Source: Actinomycetes bacterium (GTDB taxonomy: Bacteria; Actinomycetota; Acidimicrobiia; Acidimicrobiales; JAJYXR01). From it: a stretch of 64,000 nucleotides of DNA. The DNA is taken from contig JAJYXR010000028.1 in assembly GCA_021801795.1 (NCBI GenBank), positions 21,429 to 85,428 on the forward strand, in the 5' to 3' direction. Under the pieces are notes generated by a model, which was given only the letters and a program-made list of their open reading frames with translations, was not told where the DNA came from and ran no database searches. Made by a program: the position numbers and the translations under genes. Positions 569 through 57,494 of the stretch are shown here, one piece after another (within the stretch, counting starts at the first letter, position 1; the number at the start of each line of letters is the position of its first letter).

Positions 569-987
569 CGTTCCCTCTTAGGTGGTCGTTTGGGGCGGGA
601 GCATAACCGCTTCGGAGCACTGATCGGTCGCTTTCCCGGAAAAAGACTGCCCGAGAGCGCGAAGTGCCTGCTCCACGCTTCGGGCGGCAGGCCCGGGGAC
701 CTTTGGTGCCATCGGCCAGCGACCCATCGGGCACTCTGGTCATCGACGTTCTCTACTCGGTCCCCAAGGCCATCCTCCGCCCAACACAGCATCCCCCCCC
801 TTACCGTTCCGTCGGCGAGTACCCAGGCGGGCCAGCACGGGGCAAGCGGGACTCTGGGCAGACTAGGTGCTTCTACCCCCAGCTCGTCAAGTGAGAAACG
901 GCTGCTTCTAGCAGGAGATATGCGTATACCACCTGCTCAGGCACCGCCCAGGATTCCAACTGGAGTCGCTGCGCAGTGCCCCGGCCT

Positions 988-2622: not shown

Positions 2623-2735
2623 GCCCTGCCAACAATATGACCCAACGGTCTACCAAGTGGCGGATCGTCCCTGAGCAGGATGCCACGGCTTGCGTCGTGA
2701 CGACTGTCCAGGCAGGTTCCAGTCCGAAGCCAGGC

Positions 2736-5581: not shown

Positions 5582-5588
5582 CGCTAGG

Positions 5589-5999
5589 TCAGTTCAGGCT
5601 CGGGTCTTCGAGCGTCTCCCCTGGAGCAACATCGACGCTTATCCGAGACACCACACCGTCGGGCCTGGCAGCACCGCCTGCGGGCACGTCGGGATCTGAC
5701 CCTCCGCCACCGGCCAGCGCTGCATTTGGATAGCCCTGCTCCGCCGTCTCGCGTTCGTGAGCGTCGGCCAGCCGGTCCAGGAAGGCCAGCGGTGAGCGCA
5801 CCGCCTGGGTCACCTCGTGCGTAGATGGTATGTCAGGAAAGGCCCCGCGTACCTCGCTCTCCAGCCGCTCGCGCAGGCGCCGGAGGTCGCCCCAGGCAGC
5901 CCCGACCTGGCGAGCGAGTTTCGGGAGCTTGTCCGGTCCGAGAACGATCAGGCCCACCACCAGGACGACCAGGAGCTTCGCAGGGTCGAGGTTCAGCAT
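5589..5999 (-). CDS. tatB: Sec-independent translocase TatA/TatB family, TatB-like
   Basis: 136 aa with an N-terminal TM helix plus hinge ...VGLIVLGPDKLPKLARQVG... The LGPxxLP hinge is characteristic of TatB rather than the FG hinge of TatA. An amphipathic helix and an acidic tail follow. Confidence 0.65.
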   Translation of the reverse strand: MLNLDPAKLLVVLVVGLIVLGPDKLPKLARQVGAAWGDLRRLRERLESEVRGAFPDIPSTHEVTQAVRSPLAFLDRLADAHERETAEQGYPNAALAGGGGSDPDVPAGGAARPDGVVSRISVDVAPGETLEDPSLN

Positions 6000-34211: not shown

Positions 34212-37200
34212 TCACCCGTGCGCCGCCGCCATGACGGCCTCGTCCACCGAGGTGCCCCTCTCCACTGCCAGCCGGGTCGCCTCCAGCACCCTCCGGTAAT
34301 CCCTCGGCATCACCTTCACGAAGTCGCCGGCTGTGGCGGCGAAGCGCTCAAGTAGCCCAGCAGCGACAGCCGATCCTGTCTCCGTCCGGTGGCGCGTGAG
34401 CACGTCCATCAACCAGCCCAGGTCCCCATCGTCCAGTGGCTCCAGGTCCACCATCTCGAAGTTCGTACGTTCGGCCAGAGCCGAGTCGGGGTCGTAGACG
34501 TAGGCCACGCCACCCGACATCCCTGCCCCGAAGTTCCTGCCGGTAGGTCCCAGCACCACGACGTATCCGCCGGTCATGTACTCGCAGCCGTGGTCGCCGA
34601 CGCCCTCCACGACTGCCAGGGCACCGGAGTTCCGGACGCAGAAGCGCTCACCGGCCTGGCCGCGAATGAAGACCTCGCCGCCGGTGGCTCCGTAGAGGAC
34701 GACGTTCCCGGCTATCACCTGGTCCTCTGCCCTGAAGGTGCTGGATTCGGGTGGCATAACCACGACCCTTGCGCCGGAGAGACCCTTGGCCAGGTAGTCG
34801 TTCGCGTCCCCTCGCAGGCGCAGCGTGATGCCGCGGGGAACGAAGGCGCCGAAGCTCTGACCTGCAGAGCCATCGAATGTGATGTCGATGGTGTCATCTG
34901 GCAGCCCAGCGCTGCCGAGGCGCTTCGTCACCTCGTAGCCGAGAAGGGTGCCCACTGTCCTGTCCACGTTCCTTATGGCGAGGTTCGCGCCCACCCTCAC
35001 GCTTCCGTCACCAGCCTCGATCGCAGGCATGCACACCTCCATGAACTGGTGGTCGAGCGCACGGTCCAAGCCATGATCCTGGCTGCGTCGCCAGAGCCTG
35101 TCTGTAGGAGGTCCGGCCTCGGGCTCGGCCACCACCGGGGACAGGTCCAGTCCACGAGCCTTCCAGTGCGCGACCGCTACCTCGGGGTCCAGCAGGTCCA
35201 CACGCCCCACCGCCTCCTCTAGCGACCTGAGACCCAGCATGGCCAGGTACTCGCGCACCTCCTCGGCTATGAACTGGAAGAAGTGCTCCACGAACTCCGG
35301 CTTTCCCGAGAAGCGCTTGCGCAGCTCGGGGTTCTGGGTGGCGATGCCGACGGGGCAGGTGTCGAGGTGGCAGACCCGCATCATCACGCAGCCGGACACC
35401 ACCAGGGGCGCGGTGGCGAAGCCGAACTCCTCCGCGCCGAGCAACGCCGCCACGACGACATCGCGCCCGGTCTTCATCTGCCCGTCCACCTGGACCACGA
35501 TGCGATCTCTCAGGCCGTTGCGCACCAGAGTCTGCTGTGTCTCGGCCAGTCCCAGCTCCCAGGGAACCCCTGCGTGCTTTATCGATGTGAGCGGGCTCGC
35601 CCCTGTGCCCCCGTCGTGGCCCGAGATGAGGACCACGTCGGACTTCGCCTTGGCCACCCCGGCAGCCACCGTACCGACGCCCACCTCCGCCACCAGCTTC
35701 ACGTGCACCCGAGCTTCCGGGTTCGCGGACTTCAGGTCGTGTATGAGCTGGGCTATGTCCTCTATCGAGTAGATGTCGTGGTGAGGAGGCGGCGAGATGA
35801 GGCCCACGCCAGGAGTGGAGAACCTGGTGCGCGCTATCCACGGGTACACCTTGTGCCCGGGCAGCTGCCCACCCTCGCCGGGCTTGGCTCCCTGGGAGAT
35901 CTTTATCTGGATGTCGTCGGCGTTCACCAGGTACTCACTCGTGACCCCGAAGCGTCCAGAGGCCACCTGCTTTATGGCGCTACGTCTCAGGTCACCGTTC
36001 GGGTCAGGCACGAAGCGCTGGGGATCCTCGCCACCCTCGCCGGTGTTGGACTTCGCCCCGAGGCGGTTCATCGCTATGGCCAGGGTCTCGTGTGCCTCCG
36101 CGGAGATCGAGCCATAGGACATCGCTCCGGTGGCGAACCGCCTCATGATCTGAGACACCGGCTCGACATCCTCGAGGGGGATCGGTGCCGGGGCATTCTC
36201 GTATCCTGCCGAGCGGGTGCGCAGGCGCATCAGTCCCCTGAGCGTCGCCAGCCGCTCGGCCTGATCGTCTACGAGCTGTGTGTACTCCTTGAACACGTCG
36301 TAACGCTTGGCCCTGGTGGCATGCTGGAGCTTGAAGACCGTCCTCGGGTTGAAAAGGTGTACCTCTCCTTCGCGCCGCCACTGGTACTCCCCGCCGGTAT
36401 CGAGCTCACGGTGCGCCAGCTCTCTAGGTCGAGGAAAGTGCGCTCTACGGTGCCGCTCGGCCACCTCCTCTGCCAGCACGTCGAGTCCGACGCCGCCGAT
36501 CCTGCTGACCGTGCCGGTGAAGTACTCGTCCACCAGATCGCGCGCCAGGCCGACCGCTTCGAAGACCTGGGCACCGCAGTAGCCCTGTACGGTGGATATG
36601 CCCATCTTCGACATGATCTTCACCACGCCCTTCGTCGCCACCTTCAGGTAGTTCCTACGGCCCTGGCGCGGGGTCACTCCCGTGACGGCTCCAGATGCGA
36701 TCATGTCGTCGACTGTCTCGAGAGCCAGATACGGGTTGACCGCAGAGGCTCCGTATCCGATCAAGAGGGCGATGTGGTGCACCTCGCGCGCGTCTCCGGT
36801 CTCGACTACCAGGCCCACCCGGGTGCGGGTGCGCTCCCGGACCAGGTGATGGTGGACTGCCGAGGTGACCAGTAGCGACGGCACCGGCGCCTGGAGCGCG
36901 TCCGAGTTCCTGTCGGACAGCACTATCACGTTGGCTCCGGAGGCTATGGCCTCGGAGACCTTCCGGCGCACCTCCTCGATGGCCGACCGGAGGGCCTCCG
37001 CACCTCCGTCCACCTCGAAGAGCGCGTCGATGGCGAACCCCCGGAAACCCGGTGTCTCACCGTTCTCGTTCACGTAGAGGAGCTTCGCGAGGTCCTCGTT
37101 GTCTATCACAGGCCGTGGAAGCACTATCTGTCGACACGAGGCCGCAGTCGGCTCCAGCAGGTTCCCCTCGGGTCCCACCAGCGACCTGGTGGCTGTTACC

Positions 37201-38840
37201 AGCTCCTCGCGGATCGCATCCAGGGGAGGGTTCGTCACCTGCGCGAAGAGCTGGGTGAAGTAGTCGTAGACCAGTCGCGGGCGCTCGGAGAGCACGGCGA
37301 TTGCCGCGTCGTTTCCCATCGATCCGATCGGCTCGGCAGCGGAGCTCGCCATCGGACCGATGATGAGACGCAGGTCCTCGTTCGTGTACCCGAAGACCCT
37401 CTGGCGGCCCACCACCGAGGAATGCTGGGGGGTGAGCATCACCCTGGGCGGCAGCTCTTCGAGACCCACCTGGTTGGCCCTCAACCACTCTCCATAGGGC
37501 TCTGCCGCAGCCAGCTCGGCCTTCAGCTCGTCGTCGCCTACGATCCTCCCCCTCTCGGTGTCCACCAGGAACATCCGCCCGGGCTGGAGCCGACCCTTGG
37601 CCACCACATGGCGCTGGTCGATGTCCAGCACCCCGACCTCGGAGGCCAGCACCACCAATCCCTCGTCGGTCACCCAGTAGCGCGCGGGCCTGAGGCCGTT
37701 CCGGTCGAGGACCGCCCCAGCGACGACACCGTCCGTGAAGACCACGGCTGCCGGCCCGTCCCATGGCTCCATCACCGATGCATGGAAGCGGTAGAAGTCC
37801 CGGCGAGCCTCCTCCATGAGACCGTGGTTCTCCCAGGCCTCCGGGATCATCATGAGAACGGCATGCGGCAGGCTCCTGCCGCCCAGGTGGAGCAGTTCCA
37901 GCACCTCGTCGAATGAGGCCGAATCGGACCCCGACGGGCTGCAGATGGGGAACAGGCGGGACAGGTCGCCCGGGATGAGGCTGCTGGCCAGCAGGGCCTC
38001 ACGGGCGCGCATCTGGTTCCTGTTCCCCCGCAGGGTGTTTATCTCCCCGTTATGGGCCAGGTAACGGTATGGGTGCGCGAGCGGCCAGGATGGAAAGGTG
38101 TTGGTGGAGAACCGCGAGTGCACCAGCGAGATCGCGCTCTGCATCCGCTCGTCCGCCAGGTCCGCGTAGAAGCCGTCGAGCTGCGTGGCGGTGAGCATCC
38201 CCTTGTACACGATGGTGCGCGCGGAGAGGGAGGAGAAGTAGACGTCGGCCACCTCGTTCTCCACCCTCCTCCTCAGGCAGTACGCCAGCCGCTCGAGCGC
38301 CATCACCGCATCGGCAGCATCTCTGGCCTGACCGGTCGGCGCCGGCCCGTCGGATGCCGGCGGTGCGCCGGGGCTGGCCGGTGCCACGAACACCTGGGCG
38401 AAGCGAGGCATCGCAGCCAGAGCAGAGGCACCCAAGCGCGAGGGGTCCACCTCCACCGACCGCCATCCGAGAAGGACCAACCCCTCCTCGACGGCTATCC
38501 TCTCCACCTCGGAGCGGGCCTTGGCTGCCGACTCAGCTTCCTCGGGCATGAAGGCGATGCCCGTGGCGTAGTGGCCGGGCTCCGGCAGGCTGAAGTCCGT
38601 GGTGGCCCTGAAGAGGGCATCGGGCACCTGGACGAGTATCCCTGCCCCGTCACCCGTGTCGGCCTCGGCTCCGCTGGCTCCGCGATGCTCGAGGTGCTCC
38701 AGGGCCGTAATGCCCTGCCGGACGATCTCGTGGCTCCTGCGGCCTCGCATGTCGGCCACCAGGGCAATGCCGCAGGCATCGTGCTCGAAAGCCGGGTCGT
38801 AAAGGCCCCTGGTGGGGTCCGGGCTCGTCATCCCATACAC
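34212..38840 (-). CDS. gltB: Glutamate synthase large subunit
   Basis: 1542 aa. The Ntn amidotransferase start is ...[12 protein letters not shown]... The FMN/Fe-S central domain and the C-terminal GXGXG beta-helix domain are present. Confidence 0.95.
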
Positions 38841-38958: not shown

Positions 38959-41900
38959 TCAGCCGGTGAGGTAGTAGCCCTCCACGTCGACGATCAGGTT
39001 CGTATAGCCCGTGGCACCGTTGTAGATGGTGATCTGGCCGCCGGTGCCCACCTTCACCACCGCCAGGTTCGCCACCGCTGCCTGGTAGGTCGCGATCGAC
39101 CAGTTCACGTTCGAGAAGCTTCCGGGGTTCGCGCTCAGACCGGTCGGGTAGGCAGAGAGGTAGCCGCCGGTGGAGAAGGATCCCGCGAAGGTCACGTTCA
39201 GGAGCACGGCCGCCACCCCAGTGGCCGGCACTCCTCCTACGCCGGTGACGCTCACGTGTATCTTTCCCCCGCCAGCAGGGGCTGCGAGTGTCGCGTCGGA
39301 TGCCGGCAGGGCTGCGCAGTAGGACGCGCTCAGCTCACTCGGTCGTGGGTTCTCGGCGCACCTGGTGTCCACCAGGCGCTCCGGGGAGACCGGGACGTAG
39401 GTGGAGCCAGCCGCGCTGCCCGTAGAGCTGCCCGATGTGGAGGAGGCTCCGGCCGAGAGGTAGTAGCCCTCCACGTCGACGATCAGGTTCGTATAGCCCG
39501 TGGCGCCGTTGTAGATGGTGATCTGGCCCCCGGTGCCCACCTTCACCACCGCCAGGTTCGCCACCGCTGCCTGGTAGGTCGCGATCGACCAGTTCACGTT
39601 CGAGAAGCTTGCGGGGTTCGCGCTCAGACCGGTCGGGTAGGCAGAGAGGTAGCCGCCGGTGGAGAAGGATCCAGCGAAGGTCACGTTCAGGAGCACGGCC
39701 GCCACCCCCGTGAGAGGCACGCTTCCTACGCCGGTGACGCTCACGTGGATCTTCCCCCCGCCAGCAGGGGCTGCGAGTGTCGCGTCGGATGCCGGCAGGG
39801 CTGCGCAGTAGGACGCGCTCAGGTCGCTCGGCAGAGGGTTCTCGGCGCACCTGGTGTCCACCAGGCGCTCCGGGGAGATCGGGACGTATGTGCCTGCTAC
39901 CTGCGGGGGCGCAATGATCGCATAGGTGTCCGATGTCACCGCTGTGGTGTCGGAGCTGGTCGACAGGGATCCCGTGTAGGAATACGACGGTTTCGTGGGA
40001 TTCAGCACCCCGCTGATGGTCACCGTTACCGCATCCGACGCGCCGATGCCAGTCGCCGACAGGTCCATCGATACCTGGTTAGGAGTGGCAGACCCAGTAC
40101 CGTCGGAGACGCTCACCGACGCGACCGTGTCGGTCGAGGAGGTGGCATCTGTGACGACATAGTCCGACGCGCTGGCCGGCAGCGTGGTACCCGCAGTCAG
40201 GGTGAGGTCGATAGAGGACCCCGCAGCCAGAGCCCCGCTGGCCGAGGTGGTGAAGACCACCGTGTAGGTAGACGTCGATCCCGTGGTGGCTGGCGCAGGC
40301 GATACGGTGAGACCCGAGGCTGACTCAGCGGACTGGGGAGCAGGACAGAGCACGCCAGGAGCGAAGATCGCGGATGTCGGCGTGCCGAGTCCACTGACCA
40401 TGTTGTAACCGGCGGTGGCCGGGTAGAGGCCGCTGTTCGTGCCAGTCATGTCGTTGTTCCCGGTGGTCACCCCCTGGAGGTCCGATGCATGGCTGTACAG
40501 AGCAGGGTTCGCGAACCCGGTCGAGCCCGCACAGCCCTGGTTCGTATCGGCCACCACAGCAGCCCAGAGAGGGGCTGCAGCGCTGGTGCCCCCTGCAGCC
40601 ACCCAACTGCCCTCGTAGTAGATCTCGTAGCCGTGGTTCGGATCTGCCGAGGCAGATACATCCGGCACCTCGCGACACAGGGACCCCGACGGCGCAGAGC
40701 AGGGCGAGCCGGTGGAGTACTGGTTCTCTACCCCGGTACCCTTCTGCCAGGACGGCATGGTCCAGTTCTGTGATATCCCACCACCACCGGCGCCACCTAG
40801 GACTCCTCCATTCCAGGCGCTCTGCACAGCCGGCGGGCCCAGCGAGCTGAGGCTCACACCTCCCACGCCAGTCACGTAGGGCTGCGAGGCCGGGTCGTCG
40901 ACTGCCAGGCCGATGGGCATCACCGAAGACATGAGCTCCGCGGGGACAACTCCCCCGTCGAGGGACAGGACGATGCCCGATCCGTTCGGGCTGCTCCCCA
41001 CTGCCTCACAGACGCTCGCAGCGCCACAGGACACCGCCGATAGGGAACCCGCCCAGGTGCCCGTGACAGCCCCAGGCGCGCCGCTGTCGATGGCGAGCAC
41101 CCCTCCGGTGCCGGTATAGGAATCGATACCCACGGCCTCGCAGGACCCGGCCGAAGGGCAGGCCAGCGAGGAGATGAGCGACATGGCAGGCACGTCGGTC
41201 ACCACGCCTGCGCCGGAGGATCCCACTGGCAGGGCTACTCCCTCGGTGGCACCTGCCAGCAAGCCGGCGGAGGAGGACGTAGAGGGCTCCTCGTAGAGAC
41301 CCACCGCCTCGCATGCACCCGGGGAACTGCAGGACACCGAGATCAGCTCGCTCGCAGAGGAGACTGCCTGCACGGCAGAAGGGCTCCCGCTCGCCAGAGT
41401 GAGGAGGACACCCTCCAGGACCCCACTCGACGTGGCGTACGCTCCCACGGCCTCGCAGCTGCTAGTCGGGCAGTCGATGCCCAATAGCGCGGTCGAGCCC
41501 CCCACTGGCACCGGGGATCCGGGCGCGCCGTTCGTGATGGCGACGGCGACGCCCTCACCGGCTGCATTCTCGCCCACTGCCTCGCACGTCGTGGTAGAGC
41601 TGCAGCTCACGGCGTCGAGGAAGGAGACCGACGAGACGCTCTCTGCGGCCCCGGGGGTGCCGTTCGACACCTGGACCGCCACGCCCACGCCCGAAGAGCT
41701 CTCGCCCACTGCCTCGCACTCCGCAGAGGACACGCAGTAGATGCCCATGATGGCTACGGCTCCCGGGACGCTCACGGCGCCACCCACCGTGGTGCTGGTG
41801 GCGTTCACCGTGGCCACCTCCCCGCTCTGACCCGTCGAACCCCCGGCGAGGCAGGCTGACGTGAAGCAGGACGCGGCATCGAGGCCTGGAGCCGTCCATG

Positions 41901-44900
41901 CGATCGAGACCGCGCCGGGCGTTCCATTCGAGACGCCGACGATCTCCGGTTGGCCCACGCCCGTAATGCCGAGAGCCTCGCACGCACCAGCCGATATGCA
42001 TGACACGCCCAGCAGCTCTGCGGCGGACGAAGTAGTGGCTGGGGATCCAGGCACGCCGTTGGACACCTCGAGTGCCACCCCGAGAAGGGAGGTGCTGCTG
42101 GCCAGGTCGGTGCCCACCGCCACGCAGGTGGTCGACGGGCAGGCCACGGAGCTGAGCAGCGTCGTGCCCGAGACCGTGGAGGCGGCTCCAGGAGACCCAC
42201 CAGTGACGGGGACCACCACGCCCTCTGCGCTGAGCAGAAGACTGGTCGTACCCGACCCAGTCGCATAGTCTCCGACAGCCACACAGGCGCTCGCAGAGCT
42301 GCAGGCCACAGAGGTCAGCTGGCTCGCCCCACTCACGTCTGCCGGTGATCCGGGCGCGCCACCGTCCAGTGCTACGACTGCTCCCACGGACGAAGTGGAG
42401 GAGCTGATCGTCACGCCAACAGCCTCGCAGGAGCTGCTGGTGGCACACGCTATCGAGCTCAGCCTCGACACGCCCGATACCTCTAGAGCACTGCCTGGCG
42501 TGCCATCCGTTATGGGGAGCGTCACGGCCGACACCTGGGCCGAGGTGGAGGAACTCATCACTAACCCCACTGCCTGGCAGCTCCCCGAGGCTGGACATGC
42601 CACGCCCGTAAGCTCCGAGGTTCCTGGGGCATCTACCGGCGTACCCGGGGTGCCCGAATCGATCGGTACGGCTACGCCCTCGAACAGCGTGGAAACCGAG
42701 GTCGCGCTGAGGTTCAGGTCATAGCCGACTGCCTCGCAGGAGGTGGCTGACGAGCACGCTACCGAGGACAGCTCGCTCGTTCCCGGTACCTCTACCGGTG
42801 CACCAGCCACCCCGTTCGTCACCTGCGCCACGACTCCGACGCCATTGCTGTCGTCGCCGACTGCCAGGCACGATGTCGAGGAGTAGCACGCCAGACCCCT
42901 CAGTGTCACCGACGCCGGCGCTGGAGTGCCCACCGAGGTCACGCCTGCAGCCACACCGCTCGTCGAGATAGGCACCACGGCGCCGTTCCCCGCCAGGTCC
43001 GCGCCGACTGCCTCGCAGCCGGTGGATCCCGAGCAGGTGACCCCGTCCAGCCCGCTCACCCCCGACACCTCCACGACGCTTCCCAGGGTGTCGCCGCTCA
43101 TGGGCACAGCCAGGCCACCAGAGGTGGAGGACAGGCCTACGAGGAGGCACGCTCCTGAAGCGCCGCAGGCGGCAGCCTCTATCAGGGTCGCAGAGGTAAG
43201 GACCGTCAGCTGGCCAGGCGTCCCGTCAGTGATGGAGTCGACGACACCGTCGCCCGAGGCGTTGTCACCACCGAAGACGCACGAGGTGGTACCGCTGCAC
43301 GCAACCGCGTCCACCAGGGATGTGCCGGGCACGTCCAGAACGCTCTCGACATCACCATCCACCACCAGCGCCACCAGCCCTTCAGGGTTCGCGACGCTGC
43401 TGTCGGCTCCCACCACCGCGCACGCAGTAGTCGAGGGGCAGGCGATCCCGTAGAGCACCGAGCTGCCCGGTATGTCGATGGGTGAGCCAGGCGTGCCGCC
43501 CACGAGGGATAGCACCACGCCTACCCCGGAGGCCCCAACCCCGGTCATCACGCACCCCGAGCTAGAGGGGCAGTCGATCGCCAGTATGGCAGCCGTATCC
43601 GATGCCACTATGGGAGCTCCGGGAACGCCCGAGTCTATGGGCACCACGACACCCACCCCGTTCGCATTAGCGCCCACCGCCTCGCACTCGGTGGTCGTCG
43701 GGCAGGCCACGGCGAACAGAGCGATGGTCCCGCTCACCATGATCGGCGTCCCGGTGCTGGACCCGTCCACCGGGACGACCACCCCCTCGGCATCGTTCGA
43801 GTTCTGACCGACTGCGATGCACGACGTCGAGGATGGGCAGGCAATGCCGTTCAGCGAGTCAGGCGCTCCGCTGTAGCAGTCCTCGGATCCGGAGTCCCCA
43901 GCCGCAGCGATCATCGTCTGGCCCTGAGCAGCCATCTGCTCGAAGATCGTGTTCTCCGCCCCGGCGGCGGCAGTCCCGGTGGCCGCCTCGCACTCCCCCC
44001 AGCTGGTGGAGACCACCTGAGCAGCGTCGGCGTTCGCGATGGCGGCATAGTCGTCGATGGAGCCCACCTGGCTGTTCGGTGCCTCGTAGACGACGATCTT
44101 CGCCTCGGGTGCCAATGCAGCAGCGTCCTCGATGTCCAGGGTGTCCTCGGCCGAGCCGCCGAGCCCTGAGGTGCCTCCCCCGTCGACCTGGACCTGGCTG
44201 ACCGGCGTGGTGATCCCGTAACAGGACTCGAAGCTGCTTATATCAGAGCTCGAGTACGGAGCCAGCTCGAAGAGGCCTATCGTCTGCCCGGCGCCGAACA
44301 GGCCCTTGGCGTAGGCGCCCGAGCTGAAGCCGTACGCCTGGGCAATCTGGCCGGCAGTGTAGGCGCCTGCAGACGACGCCGCGCTGGAGGCCGCCGAGCA
44401 GGCACTCGGCCCTGACGCGCCACGGGGAGAGACAGCGCTGCCGGGTACTGCCTCGGCGCTCCGAGATTCCCCGGCCAGAGCAGATCCGGCCTGGGGAGCG
44501 ATCTCTGCTGCCAGCGCAGCCCGGATCCGTCCCTCGCCGATGGCTCCGGCTATAGGCGGGAGGCTGCGTACCTGGCTGGCGCCGCTCACGCCTGGCTGGC
44601 CGGTAAGGCTGTCGGTGACGCCAGTGCGGCATAGGCCGAGCGAGCGGGTGCCGTGAAAGGCCCGCGGATAGCCGGGGATCCTCACCAGGCACGCATTCGA
44701 TGCCGAAGGAGCCATCAGCGGGTGCGGACGCACCACCGTGGACAACCCCACGATCGCCTGGACGTAGTGCGATACCGCGGCGTCCAGATGGGGAGGGGCC
44801 AGGTTCGCGAACGCGCTGCGGCCACTCGGCAGCCTGTAGCTGAGCTCGGTCACACCGAGCGCACGCTCGACTGCGGCTGCCTTACCGGTCACCGGTACCA

Positions 44901-45456
44901 CCAAGCCATCTTCACTCAGGTGCCCGGGGCGCAGACCGCCATCCGCCAGCGCGGAGCGGACCTCGGACACGGCGGCGCTGGACGCGCCGAAACGGGCGGC
45001 GAACTGCCCACGCTTCAAGAAGTGGTGGTATTCCGGCGATCCTGGCGTGTACATCTTGTCCAGGAGCGCCTGGAGCCCTGCCTCGTCCCGAGGCCGCAGC
45101 ACCACGTCGAAGGACATCGGCGTAGACGGAGCGAGCCGGCCGATAGCATGCGATCCTGCAGGCAGCCCGGTGACTCCGGCAGGTGCGAGCGGTGCCCCGC
45201 CCCTGAGCGGCCTTCCCAGGCTCTCCAGCGAAGCCCGAGCGCTCTGGTGGTCGGCCCCGGAACCGACCGTGTCGTGCGAGGAAGCTGTCCCCAGAGCGCC
45301 ACCAACAGGGGCGGCCGAGGCGAGAAGCAACGTCCCGGCCAGCACAGCTGCCAGAACAGGGGCTCCCAACAGGGCACCCCGCAGCCCACTGGCTGCCGGA
45401 GCTCCGCTGGCAGCAGCAGACCCGTCGGACTGCTCGCGCTTGGCCATGCCCATCAC
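38959..45456 (-). CDS. Giant secreted sedolisin (peptidase S53). Layout: signal/TM, pro-kumamolisin-type prodomain, catalytic domain interrupted by 21 Cys-pair repeats, Ig-like module, 2 C-terminal 'DTR' modules
   Basis: 2165 aa. The prodomain motif is ...MYTPGSPEYHHFLKRGQFAARFG... The catalytic pieces are ...SAEDTLDIE... (E437/D441 by my count), ...AAAGDSGSEDC... (D521) and ...AAGGTSAAAPLWA... (S1625). About 985 aa of repeats lie between D521 and ...VDDPASQPYVTGVGG... Confidence 0.85.
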   Translation of the reverse strand: MMGMAKREQSDGSAAASGAPAASGLRGALLGAPVLAAVLAGTLLLASAAPVGGALGTASSHDTVGSGADHQSARASLESLGRPLRGGAPLAPAGVTGLPAGSHAIGRLAPSTPMSFDVVLRPRDEAGLQALLDKMYTPGSPEYHHFLKRGQFAARFGASSAAVSEVRSALADGGLRPGHLSEDGLVVPVTGKAAAVERALGVTELSYRLPSGRSAFANLAPPHLDAAVSHYVQAIVGLSTVVRPHPLMAPSASNACLVRIPGYPRAFHGTRSLGLCRTGVTDSLTGQPGVSGASQVRSLPPIAGAIGEGRIRAALAAEIAPQAGSALAGESRSAEAVPGSAVSPRGASGPSACSAASSAASSAGAYTAGQIAQAYGFSSGAYAKGLFGAGQTIGLFELAPYSSSDISSFESCYGITTPVSQVQVDGGGTSGLGGSAEDTLDIEDAAALAPEAKIVVYEAPNSQVGSIDDYAAIANADAAQVVSTSWGECEAATGTAAAGAENTIFEQMAAQGQTMIAAAGDSGSEDCYSGAPDSLNGIACPSSTSCIAVGQNSNDAEGVVVPVDGSSTGTPIMVSGTIALFAVACPTTTECEAVGANANGVGVVVPIDSGVPGAPIVASDTAAILAIDCPSSSGCVMTGVGASGVGVVLSLVGGTPGSPIDIPGSSVLYGIACPSTTACAVVGADSSVANPEGLVALVVDGDVESVLDVPGTSLVDAVACSGTTSCVFGGDNASGDGVVDSITDGTPGQLTVLTSATLIEAAACGASGACLLVGLSSTSGGLAVPMSGDTLGSVVEVSGVSGLDGVTCSGSTGCEAVGADLAGNGAVVPISTSGVAAGVTSVGTPAPASVTLRGLACYSSTSCLAVGDDSNGVGVVAQVTNGVAGAPVEVPGTSELSSVACSSATSCEAVGYDLNLSATSVSTLFEGVAVPIDSGTPGTPVDAPGTSELTGVACPASGSCQAVGLVMSSSTSAQVSAVTLPITDGTPGSALEVSGVSRLSSIACATSSSCEAVGVTISSSTSSVGAVVALDGGAPGSPADVSGASQLTSVACSSASACVAVGDYATGSGTTSLLLSAEGVVVPVTGGSPGAASTVSGTTLLSSVACPSTTCVAVGTDLASSTSLLGVALEVSNGVPGSPATTSSAAELLGVSCISAGACEALGITGVGQPEIVGVSNGTPGAVSIAWTAPGLDAASCFTSACLAGGSTGQSGEVATVNATSTTVGGAVSVPGAVAIMGIYCVSSAECEAVGESSSGVGVAVQVSNGTPGAAESVSSVSFLDAVSCSSTTTCEAVGENAAGEGVAVAITNGAPGSPVPVGGSTALLGIDCPTSSCEAVGAYATSSGVLEGVLLTLASGSPSAVQAVSSASELISVSCSSPGACEAVGLYEEPSTSSSAGLLAGATEGVALPVGSSGAGVVTDVPAMSLISSLACPSAGSCEAVGIDSYTGTGGVLAIDSGAPGAVTGTWAGSLSAVSCGAASVCEAVGSSPNGSGIVLSLDGGVVPAELMSSVMPIGLAVDDPASQPYVTGVGGVSLSSLGPPAVQSAWNGGVLGGAGGGGISQNWTMPSWQKGTGVENQYSTGSPCSAPSGSLCREVPDVSASADPNHGYEIYYEGSWVAAGGTSAAAPLWAAVVADTNQGCAGSTGFANPALYSHASDLQGVTTGNNDMTGTNSGLYPATAGYNMVSGLGTPTSAIFAPGVLCPAPQSAESASGLTVSPAPATTGSTSTYTVVFTTSASGALAAGSSIDLTLTAGTTLPASASDYVVTDATSSTDTVASVSVSDGTGSATPNQVSMDLSATGIGASDAVTVTISGVLNPTKPSYSYTGSLSTSSDTTAVTSDTYAIIAPPQVAGTYVPISPERLVDTRCAENPLPSDLSASYCAALPASDATLAAPAGGGKIHVSVTGVGSVPLTGVAAVLLNVTFAGSFSTGGYLSAYPTGLSANPASFSNVNWSIATYQAAVANLAVVKVGTGGQITIYNGATGYTNLIVDVEGYYLSAGASSTSGSSTGSAAGSTYVPVSPERLVDTRCAENPRPSELSASYCAALPASDATLAAPAGGGKIHVSVTGVGGVPATGVAAVLLNVTFAGSFSTGGYLSAYPTGLSANPGSFSNVNWSIATYQAAVANLAVVKVGTGGQITIYNGATGYTNLIVDVEGYYLTG
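38962..39900 (-). repeat. 2 x 489-bp near-identical tandem duplication encoding the two C-terminal 'DTR' modules
   Basis: The copy starting at 38971 and the copy starting at 39460 are offset by 489 bp (163 codons). By eye I counted about 18 mismatches over about 440 bp. Confidence 0.9.
40912..43872 (-). repeat. 21 degenerate repeats of about 47 aa, each with a C-x(4-6)-C-x-(A/V)-(V/L)-G motif, nested in the S53 domain
   Basis: I counted 21 Cys-pair motifs (CPSSTSCIAVG, CPTTTECEAVG ... CGAASVCEAVG). Each is followed by G(V)VVP(V/I)xxGxPGxxxxVxGxxxLxx(V/I). Confidence 0.85.
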
Positions 45457-45656
45457 CGCCTTTCACGGCTAGACACCCGGTCTCTGTAGCGGTCTACGCC
45501 GCTACAGACGTTACCTGATCGCACGTCGTGATGTCTCTTGAGAATCGAGCAGTGCGGTCGGTTCCCGGCCTGCCGGTATGCAGATGCATCGCCCCGCGGC
45601 GAACCATGGAGCCGCGCCTGGATGCTAGAGGCGATGGGGCCCATAGGATTGTTTCG

Positions 45657-46928
45657 ATGAGTGCTACTCAGCACACCGCTCCTAGCGGCCATGAGGGTGC
45701 TGACGCTTCTCAGGTCTACGGGCGCTGTTTCGACGCGGTGGTGATCGGTGGAGGTGTGATAGGGCTTGCCTCGGCCTGGCAGGCATCCAAGCGCGGCCTG
45801 GCCGTAGCCGTCGTAGACCCCGACCCCGGGCATGGCGCCTCGTGGGCTGCAGCCGGGATGCTCGCGCCTGTGACCGAGGCTCACTATGGTGAGGAGGCGC
45901 TGCTCCACCTGTCGCTGGCGTCTGCCCGTCTCTGGGGCGCTTTCGCCGAGGAGCTGGAAGCCGACACCGGTAGCGACATCGGCTACAGGAGGTGCGGCAC
46001 CATGCTCGTCGCATTCGACGACGACGACCGGATGGCGGCCAGACAGCTCTACGAGTTCCAGCTGAAGCTCGGCCTTCAGGTCCGGTGGGTTTCAGGCCGC
46101 GAGGCTCGTGAGATGGAGCCGAACCTGGCGCCGGGCATTCGTGGTGCCCTGTGGGCCCCGAACGACCACCAGGTGAGGACCCGTCACCTCGTCCGGGCAC
46201 TCCTGGATGCCTGCCAAGAGAGCGAGGTGGCCTTCGTGCCCGAGAGGGCAGTGGCGCTCGAAGCTCCAGGTGGACGCCTGAGCGCGGTACGCCTTGCCTC
46301 TGGTATCCGGCTCACCTGCGGCGCCGCGGTGCTGGCCGCCGGAAGCTGGTCCCGATCGGTCGACGGGCTCCCCGAGCTCGCCCAGGTGCCACTTCGGCCC
46401 GTGAAGGGCGTGATCCTCCGCCTCGCGCCCGCCCCCCTGACCGCCAGCGCCACCCCAGAAACAGAACCTCCACCCCTGCTCACCCGCACTGTGCGGGGCA
46501 TGGTCCAGGGTTCTCATGTATATCTCGTCCCACGCGCGGACGGATCGATCGTGCTCGGAGCCACCTCGGAGGAACGTGGCTTCGACACGACCGTCTCCGT
46601 CGGTGCCCTCCACGACCTGATCCGCCTGGCCAGACGCCTCGTACCTGGTGTCACCGAGATGGTGCTCGCTGACGCGACCGCGGGCCTGCGACCGGCGACA
46701 GCCGACAACGGCCCCGTGATCGCAGCCATGGGCGGCGACTCCGGCGCCGAGGGGCTCGTGCTCGCCTTCGGCCACTACCGAAACGGTATCCTGCTCACCC
46801 CGATAACTGCGTCAGCCGTCTCGGCGTGGCTCTGTGGTGATCCAGCGCCTGACGAGGTGAGCGCTTTCGGGCCTTCACGTTTCTGCGCTCCAGGCTCCCC
46901 TGGGCTCCCTGCGGATGGTGTCCGATGA
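45657..46928 (+). CDS. thiO: Glycine oxidase ThiO (FAD-dependent)
   Basis: The ORF opens at 45528. The likely ATG at 45657 gives ...FDAVVIGGGVIGLASAW... near the N-terminus. There is an ATGA overlap with thiS. Confidence 0.8.
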   Translation: MSATQHTAPSGHEGADASQVYGRCFDAVVIGGGVIGLASAWQASKRGLAVAVVDPDPGHGASWAAAGMLAPVTEAHYGEEALLHLSLASARLWGAFAEELEADTGSDIGYRRCGTMLVAFDDDDRMAARQLYEFQLKLGLQVRWVSGREAREMEPNLAPGIRGALWAPNDHQVRTRHLVRALLDACQESEVAFVPERAVALEAPGGRLSAVRLASGIRLTCGAAVLAAGSWSRSVDGLPELAQVPLRPVKGVILRLAPAPLTASATPETEPPPLLTRTVRGMVQGSHVYLVPRADGSIVLGATSEERGFDTTVSVGALHDLIRLARRLVPGVTEMVLADATAGLRPATADNGPVIAAMGGDSGAEGLVLAFGHYRNGILLTPITASAVSAWLCGDPAPDEVSAFGPSRFCAPGSPGLPADGVR

Positions 46929-47158
46929 GCGACACGGATCGCGTACATGACGGCATCTTCCAGGTCGTGGTGAACGGCCTCTCGTCAACCGTCGTACCAG
47001 GCACCACCCTGGGAGAGCTGGTTCGCCGCGTCACCGACCACCAGGCTGGCATCGCGGTTGCCCTGAACGCCGAGATCGTGCCGAGAAGCCACTGGGATGC
47101 AGTGCAGGTGCAGGCCGGTGATCGGGTCGAGGTGCTCACAGCGGCAGCGGGAGGATAG
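46925..47158 (+). CDS. thiS: Sulfur-carrier protein ThiS
   Basis: 77 aa ending ...VEVLTAAAGG (C-terminal GG). It lies between thiO and thiG. Confidence 0.85.
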   Translation: MSDTDRVHDGIFQVVVNGLSSTVVPGTTLGELVRRVTDHQAGIAVALNAEIVPRSHWDAVQVQAGDRVEVLTAAAGG

Positions 47159-47207
47159 GTCTGGCGGGAGCACCGCCCACGCCGGGATCCGCCCACGCCG
47201 CCGCTAG

Positions 47208-48868
<1,661 letters not shown>

Positions 48869-48877
<9 letters not shown>

Positions 48878-51800
48878 AGAAGGACTCGCCAAGTACCCTT
48901 CCAGGTCCACGATCACGTTCAGAGCCTCAGGCGAACCGTTGTACACCATGACTGCTCCTGAGGAGCTGAGTTCGACCATCGCCATGCTCGCTACGGTCTC
49001 GCCTGGCCCCCAGTCCACCCCTGCCACGACTGGCCGGGTGCCACCGGGGTAGATGGTGAGGTAGCCGCCACTGGCGTCACCGGTGACAGCGACGTCGAGA
49101 GCAGCTGCCGTGGCGCCAGCGGGCGTGCCTCCGAGGCCGGTCACCTGGACCACCATCGACCCTCCCGGAGCGAGGGCGGATCCGCTGTTCGCGCACTGGC
49201 CCGACACGCCAGAGGTCACGTCCCCACTGCCACCGAGATCTCCCGTGCTTCGAGTGTCGCAGATCCTTACCGGTTCCGACTCTGGTGAGAAAAGGGCTCC
49301 CGAGGTACCAGACGAGGTGAAGTACCCCTCCACGTCGGCAACGAAGTCCGTGGCGACGTCGCTCACCACATCGAAGAAACCGCCAGGTCCCGGCTCCACC
49401 ACCACCAGGTTCGAGACCGCCCCCCGGCCCGGCGCGAAGTTCAGGTTCGAGATGCTCGGGGGCGCGGCGTTCGAGGCCGGATAGACGCTCAGGTAGCCGC
49501 CTTCTTCGTAACCGGTAGCCGAGACCGAGAGCACCACGGCCGTCACGCCGGTCGCAGGCACCCCGTCGAGACCGGTGACCTGCACGGGTTCTGGGGAGTT
49601 CGCAGAGAGCGGAGGCAGGCTGGCGTTGTTGGCCGGCAGGTACTCCGACCTACAAAAGCCAGGCTGCGGGCTGGCGGAGCAACGAGTGTCTGCTATGCGC
49701 GCAGGGGAGAGTGGCTGGTAAGGAGCGCCCGAAGCACCAGAGGGTGGGACGTAGTATCCCTCCAGGTCCACCACCACCTGGGATGTAGTGCCCGAGGGGC
49801 CAACCGCTATCTCCACCGTCCCCCTAGCCCCGACCCCCACAGTGACCATGTTCGCCACGTCCTCGCCGGCTGTGAAGTTCAAGTTCGAGGTGGGAGGCGC
49901 GCTGGCTCCCCCAGGAAAGACGCTCAGGTACCCGCCCGCGCTCTCGCCGGTGGCGGTGACATTCAGCACCACCGCGCTAGTCGAGCTGGCTGGCACCCCG
50001 TCTATGCCTGCCACCTGAACGGTGATCGGCTTGCCCGTCTCGGGGATGCCGAGCGAGGCGTTCGCTGCAGGCAGGGATGAACAGTAGGTCGCGCTGAGAT
50101 ATGCAGGTCGAGGGCTCTGTGCACAGCGGGTGTCCACTATGCGGGCGGGGCTCAGCGCGACGAAGGCGCTCGGCTCGCTCGGGGCCGACGTCGGCGGAGG
50201 CTGGCTCGAGGTGACGGTGAAGTCAACGCTTGCCGAGGATGCCGTCTCCGCCCCGCCAGCGGTCGTATCCACGGCCCGATAGACCACCTCCTGCTCACTC
50301 GAGTCGCTCACCGAGAACGAGGCGACTCCCGACCCGTCGGTGGTGGCAGTCGTCGGGGATACCACCGAGCTCGCAGTGCCGCTCTCCCCAGGTGCGAGGG
50401 TCTGCACCAGTCTCACCTGGACCCCAGGCAGGGGGCCAGCGGCATCGGCAAGGTGCACGGTCACCGTGGCGGTGCCGGCCGAGTCCACGGTGGAAGCTGT
50501 TATGGACGAGCTAGTCGCCACACCGCAGAGCCCAGCTATCAGCTTTCCGCCGACCGGGCTCCCGAGCCCAGTGGCCATCGCGTATCCCTGTCCCGCACCC
50601 GGTGCGGCGTAGAGGCTCCCGCTGGTGCCTGACACGTCGGTGTCGCCGGAGCTCGGCTGGTCGAAGGCCGGGGGGTCCACCGCGGCCAGACCGTAGAGTG
50701 CGGGGTTCACGAGACCCAGGCGCTCCGGGGACGACCCGCCACCACAGGCGTCCTCCGCGAGGCCGAGCATGGCGGCGAACGCAGGAGTGGAGGAGCTGGT
50801 CCCGCCGAATCCCTCCCAGGCTCCTTGGGAATAGATCAGATATCCCTGATCGGCATTGGCATCGAGCGACACGTCTGGAACCTCCCGGCAGTACGAACCC
50901 GTTGGTGCCGAGCAGGGGGCCCCGCCAGAGAGGCTGGTGATGACACCCGGCACCCCGCTCGCCTCCTGCCATGCCGGCATCAGGAAGAGCGACGAGACGC
51001 CTCCGCCGCTTCCTCCCCAGACGGTCTGCACCGGGGGTGGCCCCGGCTGTTCGAGAGTGGTGCCGCCTACCGCCGTGATATCAGGCTGCGTGGCAGGGTA
51101 TCCAGGGGTGAGGGCCGCGGGTATGACGATGGCTGGCGGGGCTACCAGGCCGTTTCCGAGGCTTACCACGTCGTTGCTCGAGGCTGGGGCGGGGCCTGCG
51201 AGGGAGTTCGGCTCGTCGCCGGCGACCGCTACGCAGGTAGAAGTCGTAGGGCAGGCCAGACCGGCCAGGTTCGACGGACCATCGACGAGCTCGAGCTCAC
51301 TGGGGACGCCAGAGGAGGATATGTACAGCTCGGCACCTGCACCCAAGACGTCGCTGCCCACGGCCACGCAGGGGCCGGCCGAGGTCGCTCCCTCGCAGGA
51401 GATCGCGTCGAAGGCGGAGCCGAGCCCGGTCAGCGTCACCACGCCCGGCGCGCCGATCGAGCCGCCGCCGACGCCAAGCACGATCCCGAGCTCCTGGTAG
51501 CCCTGGAGCTCGGCCCCGACCGCCACGCAGCTCGAGCTGGTGGTGCAGGCGATCGCGGCTATGGTCGCGTTATTGCCCACCTCCTGGGCGCTCCCAGGTG
51601 TTCCCCCGCTCACCGGCACGACGACTCCGTACCCATCGCCGAAGCCGACGGCATAGCACGACGTCGCCGTGGCGCATGCCACCGAGAGCAGCGTCTCGCT
51701 GGAGGGCACGTCGGATGCCGACCCGGGAGCCGTGCCCGAGACCTGCTCCACCACGCCATATCCGTCACCGGTGCCAACGGCCAGGCAGCTCGTCGAGGAT

Positions 51801-54484
51801 GGGCATGTCACGCCATAGAGCGTGCTCACCGGAACTGCGCTCGCCGAGCCAGACAGCTCAGGGGTGCCCGGAGTGCCGTCCTGGATGGGGACGACGACCC
51901 CCTGGCCGTTGTCGGTACCGACAGCCAGGCAGGTCGAGGACGACTCGCAGGATATGCTATAGAGTCCGGTGGTGCCGCTTACTCCATGGGTGCTCCCCTG
52001 GGTCCCGTCGTCGATGGGAACCACCACCCCGCTTCCCCCGGAACTCCCCACTGCATAGCAGACGCTCTGCGAGGTGCATGCCACTCCCTGGAGGACCACC
52101 GGGCTGGAAGACACCGGCAAAGTGGCATACGGGCCGCCCGGCACGCCAGAGTCGACCTGCTCGACCACTCCGTAGAAGCTGCCGGTGGAACTGCCACCTG
52201 TCAGGCATGTCGTGGTTCCCGGCGCACAAGCAACCGCGTCGATTGCCCCGGTGCCACCCAGCTCCATCACCGCGCCGCCAGGAGTGCCCGACTGAAGGGC
52301 GAGGAGAGCGCCGTCAGACTGGGACACGTTCGAGTCGCTGGGCCCGACGACGGAGCCACCGACGATGCAGGCCACCTGCGAGTAGCAGCCGACAGCGCTG
52401 GCCGACGCGAGACCGGTGAGCGAGACGGGGGCACCCGGAGATCCGTTGGTGATGCTCACAGAGACTGGTCCACCAGAGGAGGAGCCCACCGCGACGCACG
52501 ACCCCGGCGCGCCACACGACACCGAGGTGAGACTCGTGGTGCCCGACACGTCGATTGGCGTGCCGAGCGATCCGCCCGATAGCCCCACTACGACTCCCTC
52601 GCCGGCCTGCTGGCCCACCACGATGCAGCTAGACGACGACATGCAGGAGCCTGATATCAGGTCGGTGCCCGAAGCCGGCGACCCGCTGGCCTGGCCGACG
52701 GTTTCGGGGCTGGACGGGGTTCCGCTCACCAGCGGCACGACCATCCCTTGGAGCTGACCGTTCTCCCCTAGTGCGTAGCAGGTGGTGGAGCCGGCACAGA
52801 CAGCCCCTGCCAGGCTGAAGACGTCGCTCACCTGTTCGAGAGTGCCGGGGGACCCTGAGCTCACCCGCAGCACGCCGTATACGTGGGTGTTCACGTCGTT
52901 GCCGGTCGCCACGCACGAGCTTGCCGTCATGCATGCCACGCCGGTCACGGCCCCGGTCCCAGGCGCGACTGCGGGGCTGGAGGAGGAGCCGTCCACCGCG
53001 ACCACCTCGCCCTGGCCACCGTTAGTACCGCCGGCCAGGCAGCTGGTCGCGCTCGGACAGGCGATCGCGGCCACGTTGCCACCGGAGCCGCCAGGGGGCA
53101 GGCACTCCTGTGCTCCGTTGTCGCCCGATGCCACCACGACCGTCTGGCCCTGGGCTGCCATCTGGTCGAGCACCGTGGCCGTAGCTGCAGCGTTCGAGGC
53201 CGGCTCGTCCAGCTCGCAGAGGCTGTAGCTGGTGGAAACTATCTGTGCTTTGTCTGCCTGGGCAATGGCGGCGTAGGTCTGGTCGAAGAAGCTACTGGTC
53301 GGGCCTACCTCGTAGAAGTCGATGGTCGCCTCGGGATCGAAGCCGATGATGGTCTCGATGTCGCCGTCCGCCTCGACCAGGGCCCCCTGGCTGGTCGTGC
53401 CGCCGGCGACCGGGACCACGTTCACGGTCGCGTCCGTCCCGTAGCAGCTCTGGAAGGCCGCGACGTCGCTAGTCGAGTACACGCTCCTCGATACCACCCC
53501 GAAGGTGACACCCTGGCCGAGATAACCCTCGGAGTAAGCGCTCGTATACCCATATGCCGAGGCGAGCTGGTTCGCGGTGTAGGAGCCACCGGGAGAGGCG
53601 TTGGCGGAGGCGGCGGCGCAGGGCTGAGGCCCGGTGGCAGAAGAACGCGAAGCGATGTGAGGAGAGCTTGCTGGCACAGCGGACGAACCTTGCTCGGCTG
53701 AGCGACGAGAACCGCTGGCCGTTGTCGTCGTCGCATGCTGCCTCAGCACCTGCTCGAGCGCCACGGCGGACACGGGTGCGGCGGAGGCAAGGGCCCTAGG
53801 TACGGTCGTCAGACCGAGTACCGCCTGAGCCCTCTCCGCCAGAGCACGCGGGAGCTCGGGAGCTGCCAGGTTGGCCATGGCCAGGCGACCCGAGGGCAGC
53901 CTCAAGGTGGCGAGGTCAGCCTTCAGGACGCTGTCGGCCCGACCAGCGGTGGTGGTGAAGAACACGTCCAGGTGGTCCAGGACGGGGCCAGCCCGAAATC
54001 CGAGAGCGGACAGTTCACGCTTGGCGGCGGCTATCGTCGATGAAGTAGGCCCGAACCTGCGGGCGAACTGCCCCGGAGCGAGGAAATGGCGATACAGAGG
54101 CGAGCCGGGGCTGCTCACCTGCCTGACGAAGCTCGCCAGAGCACCCTGGTGGGCGGGACGGAGAGCCAGCGCGAGGGTCAGCGTTTCTCTCGGGTCAGGC
54201 CGCGCTACCACCACCGCGCCTGGCGGGACCGGGGATATGGACCCCACCTTTACCAGCCCAGCTTGCTCGGTACCGGATCCTCCGTGGGAGCCAGCAGGCA
54301 CGGAGCCTCTGGCGCTCACGGACGGAGCCACGCTCCCGACAGCAGCCTCGCTGAGCGACTGTCCACGAACCGCGCCCGAACCACCGGGCAGCGCTTCGGG
54401 CAGTCCGAGGAGTGTAGCCAGGGTCGCTACCAGAACTACTACCGCCTCCACGGTAAGGTGGCGCCGCCTGACTGGAAGACTCAC
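48869..54484 (-). CDS. Second giant secreted sedolisin (S53) paralog. Layout: signal, prodomain, catalytic domain interrupted by 14 Cys-pair repeats, Ig-like module, 3 'DTR' modules
   Basis: 1871 aa. It has ...SPGSPLYRHFLAPGQFARRFG..., ...VEADGDIE... (E371/D375), ...VVASGDNGAQEC... (D455) and ...GFGGTSSSTPAFAAM... (S1230). About 660 aa of repeats lie between D455 and ...GYPATQPDITAVGGT... Confidence 0.85.
48872..50170 (-). repeat. Three divergent C-terminal 'DTR' modules (about 140 aa each)
   Basis: The modules start at ...LSPARIVDTRC..., ...LSPARIADTRC... and ...PVRICDTRS... Each ends in ...(V/I)VD(L/V)EGY(Y/F/L). Confidence 0.8.
51110..53101 (-). repeat. 14 degenerate Cys-pair repeats of about 47 aa nested in the S53 domain
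   Basis: I counted 14 motifs (CPSATSCLAGG, CMTASSCVATG ... CPTTSTCVAVAG). Confidence 0.85.
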
Positions 54485-55964: not shown

Positions 55965-56039
55965 ACGCGGAACGCCACCACTCTATGTCGGCGGCCCATC
56001 ACATGCAACTAACCACCGCACACGAGAACGCGCTCTACG

Positions 56040-57476: not shown

Positions 57477-57494
57477 GGCTAGTGTGCTGGTGGT

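Follow-up and report, generated by a model that had tools for sequence, protein, structure and literature searches.

Two predicted kumamolisin-like peptidases of an Acidimicrobiales bacterium carry arrays of 21 and 14 propeller-type units in a loop beside the active site

Two S53 pro-peptidases with a nested repeat array

We analyzed a 64,000-nucleotide stretch of DNA (the window) of an Actinomycetes bacterium of the order Acidimicrobiales (GenBank assembly GCA_021801795.1, contig JAJYXR010000028.1, positions 21,429 to 85,428), in which two long minus-strand genes, here called gene A and gene B, encode peptidases of the S53 family whose catalytic domains are interrupted by arrays of cysteine-paired repeat units. 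Contig DAHWNX010000023.1 of NCBI assembly GCA_027339795.1 is a match to the window. The product of gene A consists, in this order, of a leader, a pro-domain, the N-terminal part of the S53 domain, an insert of 21 units, the C-terminal part of the S53 domain, an Ig-like region, and two C-terminal domains. Gene B is laid out in the same way, except that its insert has 14 units and its C-terminal domains number three, and the two proteins are 35% identical overall (Table 1).

The pro-kumamolisin activation domain (PF09286) was detected in both products above the gathering score. Once the repeats were excised, the product of gene A aligned over the whole catalytic domain of kumamolisin (1t1e, E = 8e-56) and of kumamolisin-As (1sio, E = 1.4e-54), and residues E78, D82, D164, and S278 of kumamolisin are equivalent to E437, D441, D521, and S1625 in A and to E371, D375, D455, and S1230 in B. 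A contiguous subtilisin-like catalytic domain was not found, the domain being split by an insert of 982 amino acids (aa) in A and 647 aa in B, and Pfam Peptidase_S8 did not match either intact protein. In A the junction lies within GDSGS-TD-[insert]-GLYHVDFPAASPYV, in the loop after the oxyanion Asp164 and between the equivalents of Asp169 and Asp179 of kumamolisin. The nearest relatives of the excised domain are ordinary S53 peptidases of 500 to 625 aa (up to 61% identity at 100% coverage), and an S53 relative with an empty site, locus L020, reads GDSGSDDCETSASLAVDDPASQPYV at the insertion loop. The full-length alignment after excision and this empty site together indicate that the repeats are a domain insertion nested in the S53 catalytic domain. 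These alignments identify A and B as kumamolisin-like pro-peptidases (MEROPS S53, Ser-Glu-Asp) with intact catalytic residues and predicted activity, and they place the array in a loop that borders the active site and adjoins the S1 pocket.

According to a review (PMC11294657), Asp179 of kumamolisin-As is part of the substrate pocket and accounts for the preference of this enzyme for Arg at P1. This residue comes five positions past the insertion point, and its equivalent is kept in A (Asp1520). We consider it improbable that the protease is a dead scaffold and that the proteins are only adhesins or surface-layer components; their very large multidomain build, with Ig-like and repeated C-terminal domains, and the loss of the Asp179 equivalent in B would suit such a role, but these old paralogs, at 35% identity, have both kept the pro-domain and all four catalytic residues, as has L001, a nested S53 gene from another genome that is described below.

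At both N-termini, about 20 hydrophobic residues come after a charged stretch, and total Cys counts are even throughout genes A and B. This hydrophobic leader and the even Cys counts fit export of both proteins. The recorded start of gene B (1860 aa) loses a positively charged n-region, MSLPVRRRHLT, ahead of the hydrophobic stretch (54451-54484), and the true start may be the upstream GTG. The RRR of this longer n-region is weakly like a twin-arginine translocation signal. No exact record of the gene B protein with the long start was found, the recorded start lying 11 codons downstream.

Table 1. Positions of genes A and B and of their parts in the window
Feature	Position	Strand	Remarks
Gene A, open reading frame	38959..45456	minus	2165 aa; recorded start at 45447 gives 2162 aa
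Gene A, pro-kumamolisin activation domain, aa 101-240	44737..45156	minus	Pfam PF09286, E = 4.9e-26
Gene A, S53 N-terminal part, aa 356-533	43858..44391	minus	Glu437, Asp441, oxyanion Asp521; aligned to kumamolisin 1t1e/1sio
Gene A, units 1-7, aa 534-850, proposed propeller 1	42907..43857	minus	Pro-rich tail after unit 7; unfolded in the A model
Gene A, units 8-14, aa 851-1190, proposed propeller 2	41887..42906	minus	Unit alignment, A model, Foldseek
Gene A, units 15-21, aa 1191-1515, proposed propeller 3	40912..41886	minus	Unit 15 is the most degenerate
Gene A, S53 C-terminal part, aa 1516-1705	40342..40911	minus	Asp1520 (equivalent to kumamolisin-As Asp179), nucleophile Ser1625
Gene A, two unnamed C-terminal domains of ~145 aa each (RLVDTRC...VDVEGYY)	38965..39891	minus	Tandem duplication
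Gene B, open reading frame	48869..54484	minus	1871 aa; recorded start at 54451 gives 1860 aa
Gene B, pro-kumamolisin activation domain, aa 89-227	53804..54220	minus	Pfam PF09286, E = 5e-17
Gene B, S53 N-terminal part, aa 292-469	53078..53611	minus	Glu371, Asp375, oxyanion Asp455
Gene B, units 1-7, aa 470-796, proposed propeller 1	52097..53077	minus	Low-confidence Pro/Ser linker after unit 7
Gene B, units 8-14, aa 797-1116, proposed propeller 2	51137..52096	minus	Unit alignment, B model, Foldseek
Gene B, S53 C-terminal part, aa 1117-1330	50495..51136	minus	Nucleophile Ser1230

Repeat units and their cysteine pairs

Units were counted in two independent ways, with the regular expression C-x(2-9)-C and with a profile hidden Markov model (HMM) built from the units, and both gave 21 in gene A and 14 in gene B, the numbers that an initial annotation made from the sequence had arrived at. 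The ranges given there also held: that for gene A (40912-43872) corresponds to aa 529-1515, the units proper occupying aa 534-1515 (40912-43857), and that for the paralog (51110-53101) encloses units proper at aa 470-1116 (51137-53077). A unit of about 47 aa had been proposed, which agrees with the means of 46.8 aa (A) and 46.2 aa (B), although the core of an individual unit is 43 to 44 aa; in the unit alignment, the extra length of the longer units is an insertion after the AVG strand. The aligned units share the motif L-x-(G/S)-(V/I)-x-C-x5-C-x-A-V-G, a variable loop, and G-V-V-V-P-(I/V)-x-x-G-x-P-G, in which the pattern noticed at the outset (a Cys pair and AVG, then VVP and G-x-PG) is present.

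Every unit has exactly two Cys (42 in the A insert and 28 in the B insert), so the pair described at the start of each unit is real. The two are spaced by x5 in 30 of 35 units and by x4, x6, or x8 in the rest, and in a 14-unit alignment all 28 Cys positions are invariant across 49 sequences. A six-frame scan of the 64 kb with the unit HMM gave matches only in genes A and B, apart from two single noise hits. At the DNA level, Tandem Repeats Finder found no tandem repeat over the blades, implying that the units are old and diverged; a recent repeat expansion or an assembly artefact of the blades is ruled out by this result. Long antisense open reading frames inside the repeat regions (e.g., 50825-52582 on the plus strand and 41555-42598 on the minus strand) were regarded not as genes but as by-products of the 68% G+C content.

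Predicted fold of the insert

The B insert was modeled with AlphaFold2 from an alignment with 48 fourteen-unit homologs. The model has a predicted local distance difference test score (pLDDT) of 80.5 and is all-beta, with four strands per unit (three long and one short, according to DSSP), which bears out the earlier suggestion that a unit of about 45 to 50 aa is blade-like. In a Foldseek search against the PDB, the B model matched with a probability of 1.00, a best E value of 6e-13 (EML-type), and TM scores of 0.49 to 0.52. The top-ranked matches are tandem-propeller proteins, namely, EML-type proteins, GH74 xyloglucanases, BT4673, and Pwp2, and the top 50 PDB matches are, as far as they could be placed, beta-propeller-containing proteins. 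The matches of known blade count are tandem seven-bladed pairs, and none of those that could be placed is known to be a solenoid. The models show a fold of the propeller type rather than a solenoid, the alternative to which a propeller had been preferred in the initial annotation.

The model of the A insert has a pLDDT of 61.8, and its units 7 to 21 are four-stranded like those of B. For these folded two thirds the best match was 1nr0, entitled "Two Seven-Bladed Beta-Propeller Domains," and acylaminoacyl-peptidase propellers are among the Foldseek matches of the A model. A low-confidence, Pro-rich linker follows unit 7 in both models.

In the B model, the first Cys of each pair ends strand 1 and the second begins strand 2, so that the two flank the first hairpin of each blade, and this position, together with the invariance of the pairs, fits intra-unit disulfides. 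It seems very improbable to us that the pairs instead bind metal or do redox chemistry. Strict conservation is what such a role would demand, and the pairs would ring one face of each propeller; however, a pair of thiols set six residues apart on either side of the hairpin of each blade has disulfide geometry, the motif contains no His or Asp partners, and the protein is a predicted export product with even Cys counts.

Copy number in multiples of seven

Gap-corrected units were counted with the unit HMM in 255 retrieved homologs, the first and less biased set of which comprised 120. Seven units were found in 27 homologs, 14 in 164, 21 in 15, and 28 in 1, so that 207 of 255 have a multiple of seven; in the first set the figure is 90 of 120 (binomial p = 1.5e-50 versus 1/7). 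In proteins with 7, 14, or 21 units, the unit HMM gives its lowest scores to the 7th, 14th, and 21st units, as expected of a ring-closing blade, and the score jumps at unit 8 in both genes (A, 23.8 to 48.0 bits; B, 6.6 to 41.0 bits). The idea, put forward at the beginning, that 21 and 14 stand for three and two stacked seven-bladed propellers gains indirect support from the sevens in homologs, the Foldseek matches, the degenerate seventh unit, and the linker after unit 7. Closed seven-bladed rings, three in A and two in B, would be the most likely arrangement.

Several results weigh against this interpretation and against the functional proposal made below. The copy number is not always a multiple of seven, since 48 of the 255 homologs have other counts (5, 6, 8, 11 to 13, and 15 to 20); some of these proteins are truncated or have a degenerate unit that was missed, but not all are explained so. 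The weakest unit of gene A is unit 15 rather than unit 14. Unit-versus-unit comparison gave flat profiles: neither A nor B showed sequence similarity at a lag of 7, and the units of A, B, and L001 had no register-specific similarity to one another, so that these profiles tell nothing of how the arrays grew. The structure prediction that had been recommended for the insert yielded a propeller-type fold for B, whereas residues 1 to 270 of the A model, the first six units, are unfolded as an effect of the shallow alignment there; the MAFFT alignment is only 1 to 16 sequences deep in this part and maps the 14-unit homologs onto units 7 to 21, and with so skewed an alignment the A model is unusable for the ring boundaries of gene A. 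Besides, gene B lacks the Asp179 equivalent.

On the same evidence one could suppose that there are no seven-bladed rings and that the units form a beta-solenoid, a single giant 14- or 21-bladed ring, or unequal rings. We judge this to be decidedly improbable. The missing lag-7 periodicity and the unfolded first third of the A model speak for it, but the Foldseek matches are propellers with no solenoid among the placeable ones, copy number is strongly quantised by seven, free-standing seven-unit modules are known among homologs, and the seventh unit is degenerate. Moreover, insertion into a loop needs neighboring chain ends, which closed rings would be able to offer.

In phosphoesterase fusions among the homologs (P0073, P0087, P0092, P0096, and P0104), only five units could be detected, although the C-terminal region that holds them has room for seven. 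They contain either two degenerate blades or a true exception to the rule of seven.

A Cys-pair branch of the Asp-box propellers

Neither Pfam nor NCBIfam returned a repeat family for the A insert, and for the B insert the Pfam search gave only a trace to Beta-prop_EML_2 (E value of 0.18) and the NCBIfam search gave none; nor had the initial annotation recognized the motif as a named repeat family. A PDB sequence-profile search with the 14-unit alignment found no match, and in Pfam PSII_BNR, BNR_2, and Sortilin-Vps10 did not match the A or B inserts even at an E value of 10. A search with the A insert gave 251 matches, and an exhaustive search with a profile retrieved 55,318 cluster representatives at E ≤ 1e-3 and 21,346 at E ≤ 1e-30 (clusters at 50% identity). 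The Cys-pair propeller is thus very common yet unnamed, with no Pfam or NCBIfam model. The best homologs are from named Acidimicrobiales or Actinomycetota.

Most family members (194 of 257) are of a type with the motif W-N-G-x-x-W (WNG type), of which A and B contain none; where these relatives have W-N-G-x-x-W, the units of A and B carry (D/N/S)-G-x-P-G, and there is no Asp-box turn (S-x-D-x-G-x-T-W or similar) between strands 3 and 4. When four WNG-type proteins were scanned singly, all four exceeded the Pfam gathering score for PSII_BNR (Ycf48) and two of the four also that for Sortilin-Vps10, with Asp-box Pfam scores of 45 to 50 bits versus a cutoff of 27. Since the scanned WNG-type relatives pass the PSII_BNR threshold, we regard the family as a Cys-pair branch of Asp-box propellers, and the copies in the window are, judged by their motifs, a derived PG subtype of Cys-pair Asp-box/Ycf48-like propellers. 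The PG subtype has exactly seven units, as a free-standing module, in 25 of 27 other proteins, and such modules of seven units occur in fusions with CE4 polysaccharide deacetylases, GDSL esterases, phosphoesterases, and Ig-like domains.

Distribution of the nested form

Among the homologs, the nested form was seen in only two truncated proteins, P0007 (at least 17 units) and P0001 (at least 13 units). A junction-spanning query of 185,579 species genomes and Joint Genome Institute (JGI) metagenomes returned 160 loci with 169 S53 reading frames, the related S53 loci being mostly from JGI environmental metagenome contigs. An insert was present in only one of the 169 reading frames, that of L001, from a metagenome-assembled genome of Actinomycetota, and the JGI metagenome scan yielded no additional nested S53. 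L020, which had seemed to span the junction, was discarded as a nested example because it is an ordinary S53 with an empty site.

No complete nested S53 other than L001 was found; its insert, in the same S53 loop, consists of exactly seven PG-type units, and it keeps the catalytic residues. In a neighbor-joining analysis of the excised catalytic domain, L001 is the sister of A (66% identity), and gene B is equally far from all sequences compared (46 to 49%). The same-loop insert in this sister pair implies that the insertion was inherited in the A/L001 lineage and that copy number changed by whole sevens. The nested S53 gene of L001 (5955-12281) ends with two more blocks of seven short (40-aa) Cys-pair units with Ig-like domains between them, and the neighboring frame (3-5951), 1983 aa from stop to stop and cut by the locus end, has about 22 WNG-type units. 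In the literature searched, nothing relevant was found for S53 or DUF2510 with a propeller.

C-terminal domains and neighboring genes

The tandem duplication at the C-terminus of gene A has a period of 489 bp (1.9 copies, 95% identity; 38968-39892). A database variant, P0379 (1999 aa, at least 90% identity to gene A), is without exactly one 163-aa C-terminal copy, so that the copy number here is either polymorphic or collapsed in assembly. The C-terminal domain itself (about 145 aa), P-x-R-(L/I)-x-D-T-R-C ... V-D-(V/L)-E-G-Y-(Y/F), occurs twice in A (38965-39891) and three times in B (about 48872-50100), and searches of Pfam and PDB sequences gave no match to it. It also follows the propellers in P0009, P0033, P0037, P0038, P0043, P0062, and P0097 and is present in L001.

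Between the two protease genes lies a thiamine cluster on the plus strand (45528-48877) with a thiO-like FAD oxidase, thiS, thiG, and thiD. Adjoining gene B are two neighboring PF04185 phosphoesterase genes (54516-57743), neither with the Cys-pair repeat; a PF04185-type phosphoesterase is fused to the Cys-pair propeller in other genomes (e.g., P0073). A gene for an S9 (prolyl oligopeptidase family) peptidase of 670 aa is found at 60773-62785. Immediately downstream of gene A, the minus strand encodes the glutamate synthase large subunit (34212-38840, read from the open reading frame translation) and small subunit (32621-34138, from Pfam domains), a housekeeping context.

Proposed function of the array

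We propose, and on balance think it probable, that A and B are S53 pro-peptidases in which 21 and 14 blades, closed into seven-bladed rings with Cys-pinned hairpins, replace a loop on the S1 side and act as a binding platform. The surface loop after the oxyanion-hole Asp, which leads to the S1-pocket wall, is replaced by four-stranded blades (21 in A and 14 in B), and these would close into three (A) or two (B) seven-bladed beta-propellers, the hairpin of strands 1 and 2 in each blade being pinned by a Cys-x5-Cys disulfide. The propeller stack would form a non-catalytic binding platform and hold a polymeric substrate or a target surface beside the catalytic cleft. We read the array as a substrate-targeting module because seven-unit modules are elsewhere joined to further secreted hydrolases and because of an analogy with PA domains, which bind substrate (collagen) or restrict access to the cleft when inserted in S8 catalytic domains (PMC5177683). 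By this analogy, the array may be a substrate- or target-binding module.

The main rival explanation is gating instead of targeting, in which the propellers would cap the S53 cleft and admit only short or unfolded peptides. There is a precedent in prolyl oligopeptidase, whose seven-bladed propeller limits access to the cleft. The insert emerges right beside the S1 pocket, acylaminoacyl-peptidase propellers appear among the Foldseek matches, and the PA domains of AcpII and C5a peptidase are reported to restrict access (PMC5177683), all of which is in line with gating. Nevertheless, the same seven-unit module is found simply attached to hydrolases of unrelated kinds, as binding modules typically are, and two or three propellers exceed the need for capping one cleft; we consider gating unlikely for these reasons.

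A bolder form of the binding-platform proposal, which we consider rather unlikely, is that the stack and the S53 domain are one machine in which rings of seven disulfide-pinned, Ser/Thr-rich loops would recognize a specific polymer and either deliver it to the cleft of the acid protease or control its entry there. The polymer would be, for example, a glycoprotein, a cell-wall component, or the envelope of another cell. If true, this would make A and B self-targeting secreted proteases of a kind not described for clan SB, with a specificity tuned by whole seven-blade rings, i.e., 7 blades in L001, 14 in B, and 21 in A.

Comparison with known systems

With kumamolisin and sedolisin (MEROPS S53, clan SB), A and B share the pro-domain, an end-to-end catalytic alignment after excision, and the Ser-Glu-Asp residues with the oxyanion Asp, but they differ in the array of 650 to 980 aa in the Asp169-Asp179 loop and in the extra Ig-like and repeated C-terminal domains. 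The catalytic domain is uninterrupted in the described S53 enzymes and in the nearest database relatives, unlike in A and B. The PA-bearing S8 subtilases (P57, C5a peptidase, lactocepin, and the cucumisin/SBT3 type) belong to the sister family in clan SB and likewise have an accessory domain nested ahead of the catalytic Ser near the cleft, with a role in substrate binding or access (PMC5177683). However, the insert of A and B is a predicted propeller stack that is 5 to 8 times larger and without the PA fold, and its host is an S53 peptidase, so that what is shared is the nesting principle only.

Prolyl oligopeptidase and acylaminoacyl peptidase (S9) also combine a seven-bladed propeller with a serine peptidase and are structural matches, but, unlike A and B, they are cytoplasmic or periplasmic oligopeptidases with an alpha/beta-hydrolase fold, a single propeller, and no Cys pairs. 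As for the Asp-box (BNR) propellers Ycf48, Sortilin-Vps10, and GH74, some WNG-type relatives pass the thresholds of the PSII_BNR and Sortilin-Vps10 models and GH74 is a tandem seven-bladed match, whereas the units of A and B have no Pfam match, carry G-x-P-G in place of the Asp-box turn, and add an invariant Cys-x5-Cys to each blade. The tandem or triple propellers of Aip1, the EML TAPE domain, and DDB1 resemble the arrays in having two or three consecutive seven-bladed rings per chain and are top Foldseek matches, but these are eukaryotic cytosolic proteins with WD40-type blades, about 10% identity, and no disulfides, and their propellers are not within an enzyme domain.

Significance

To our knowledge, S53 peptidases were previously known as compact single-domain enzymes. 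Genes A and B and L001 would represent a new architecture, in which one, two, or three propellers are spliced into the S53 loop that forms the S1 pocket wall, a natural insertion of a large domain by the active site. The placement of this common propeller type inside an S53 protease is rare. Kumamolisins have already been engineered as acid-stable peptidases, and a natural exosite at the insertion loop may be useful in this respect. The series of 7, 14, and 21 units would offer a clean case of repeat number constrained by ring closure. More broadly, the Cys-pair propeller is attached to many hydrolases that Actinomycetota and related bacteria of soil and peat secrete, and naming it would improve the annotation of thousands of "hypothetical" proteins.

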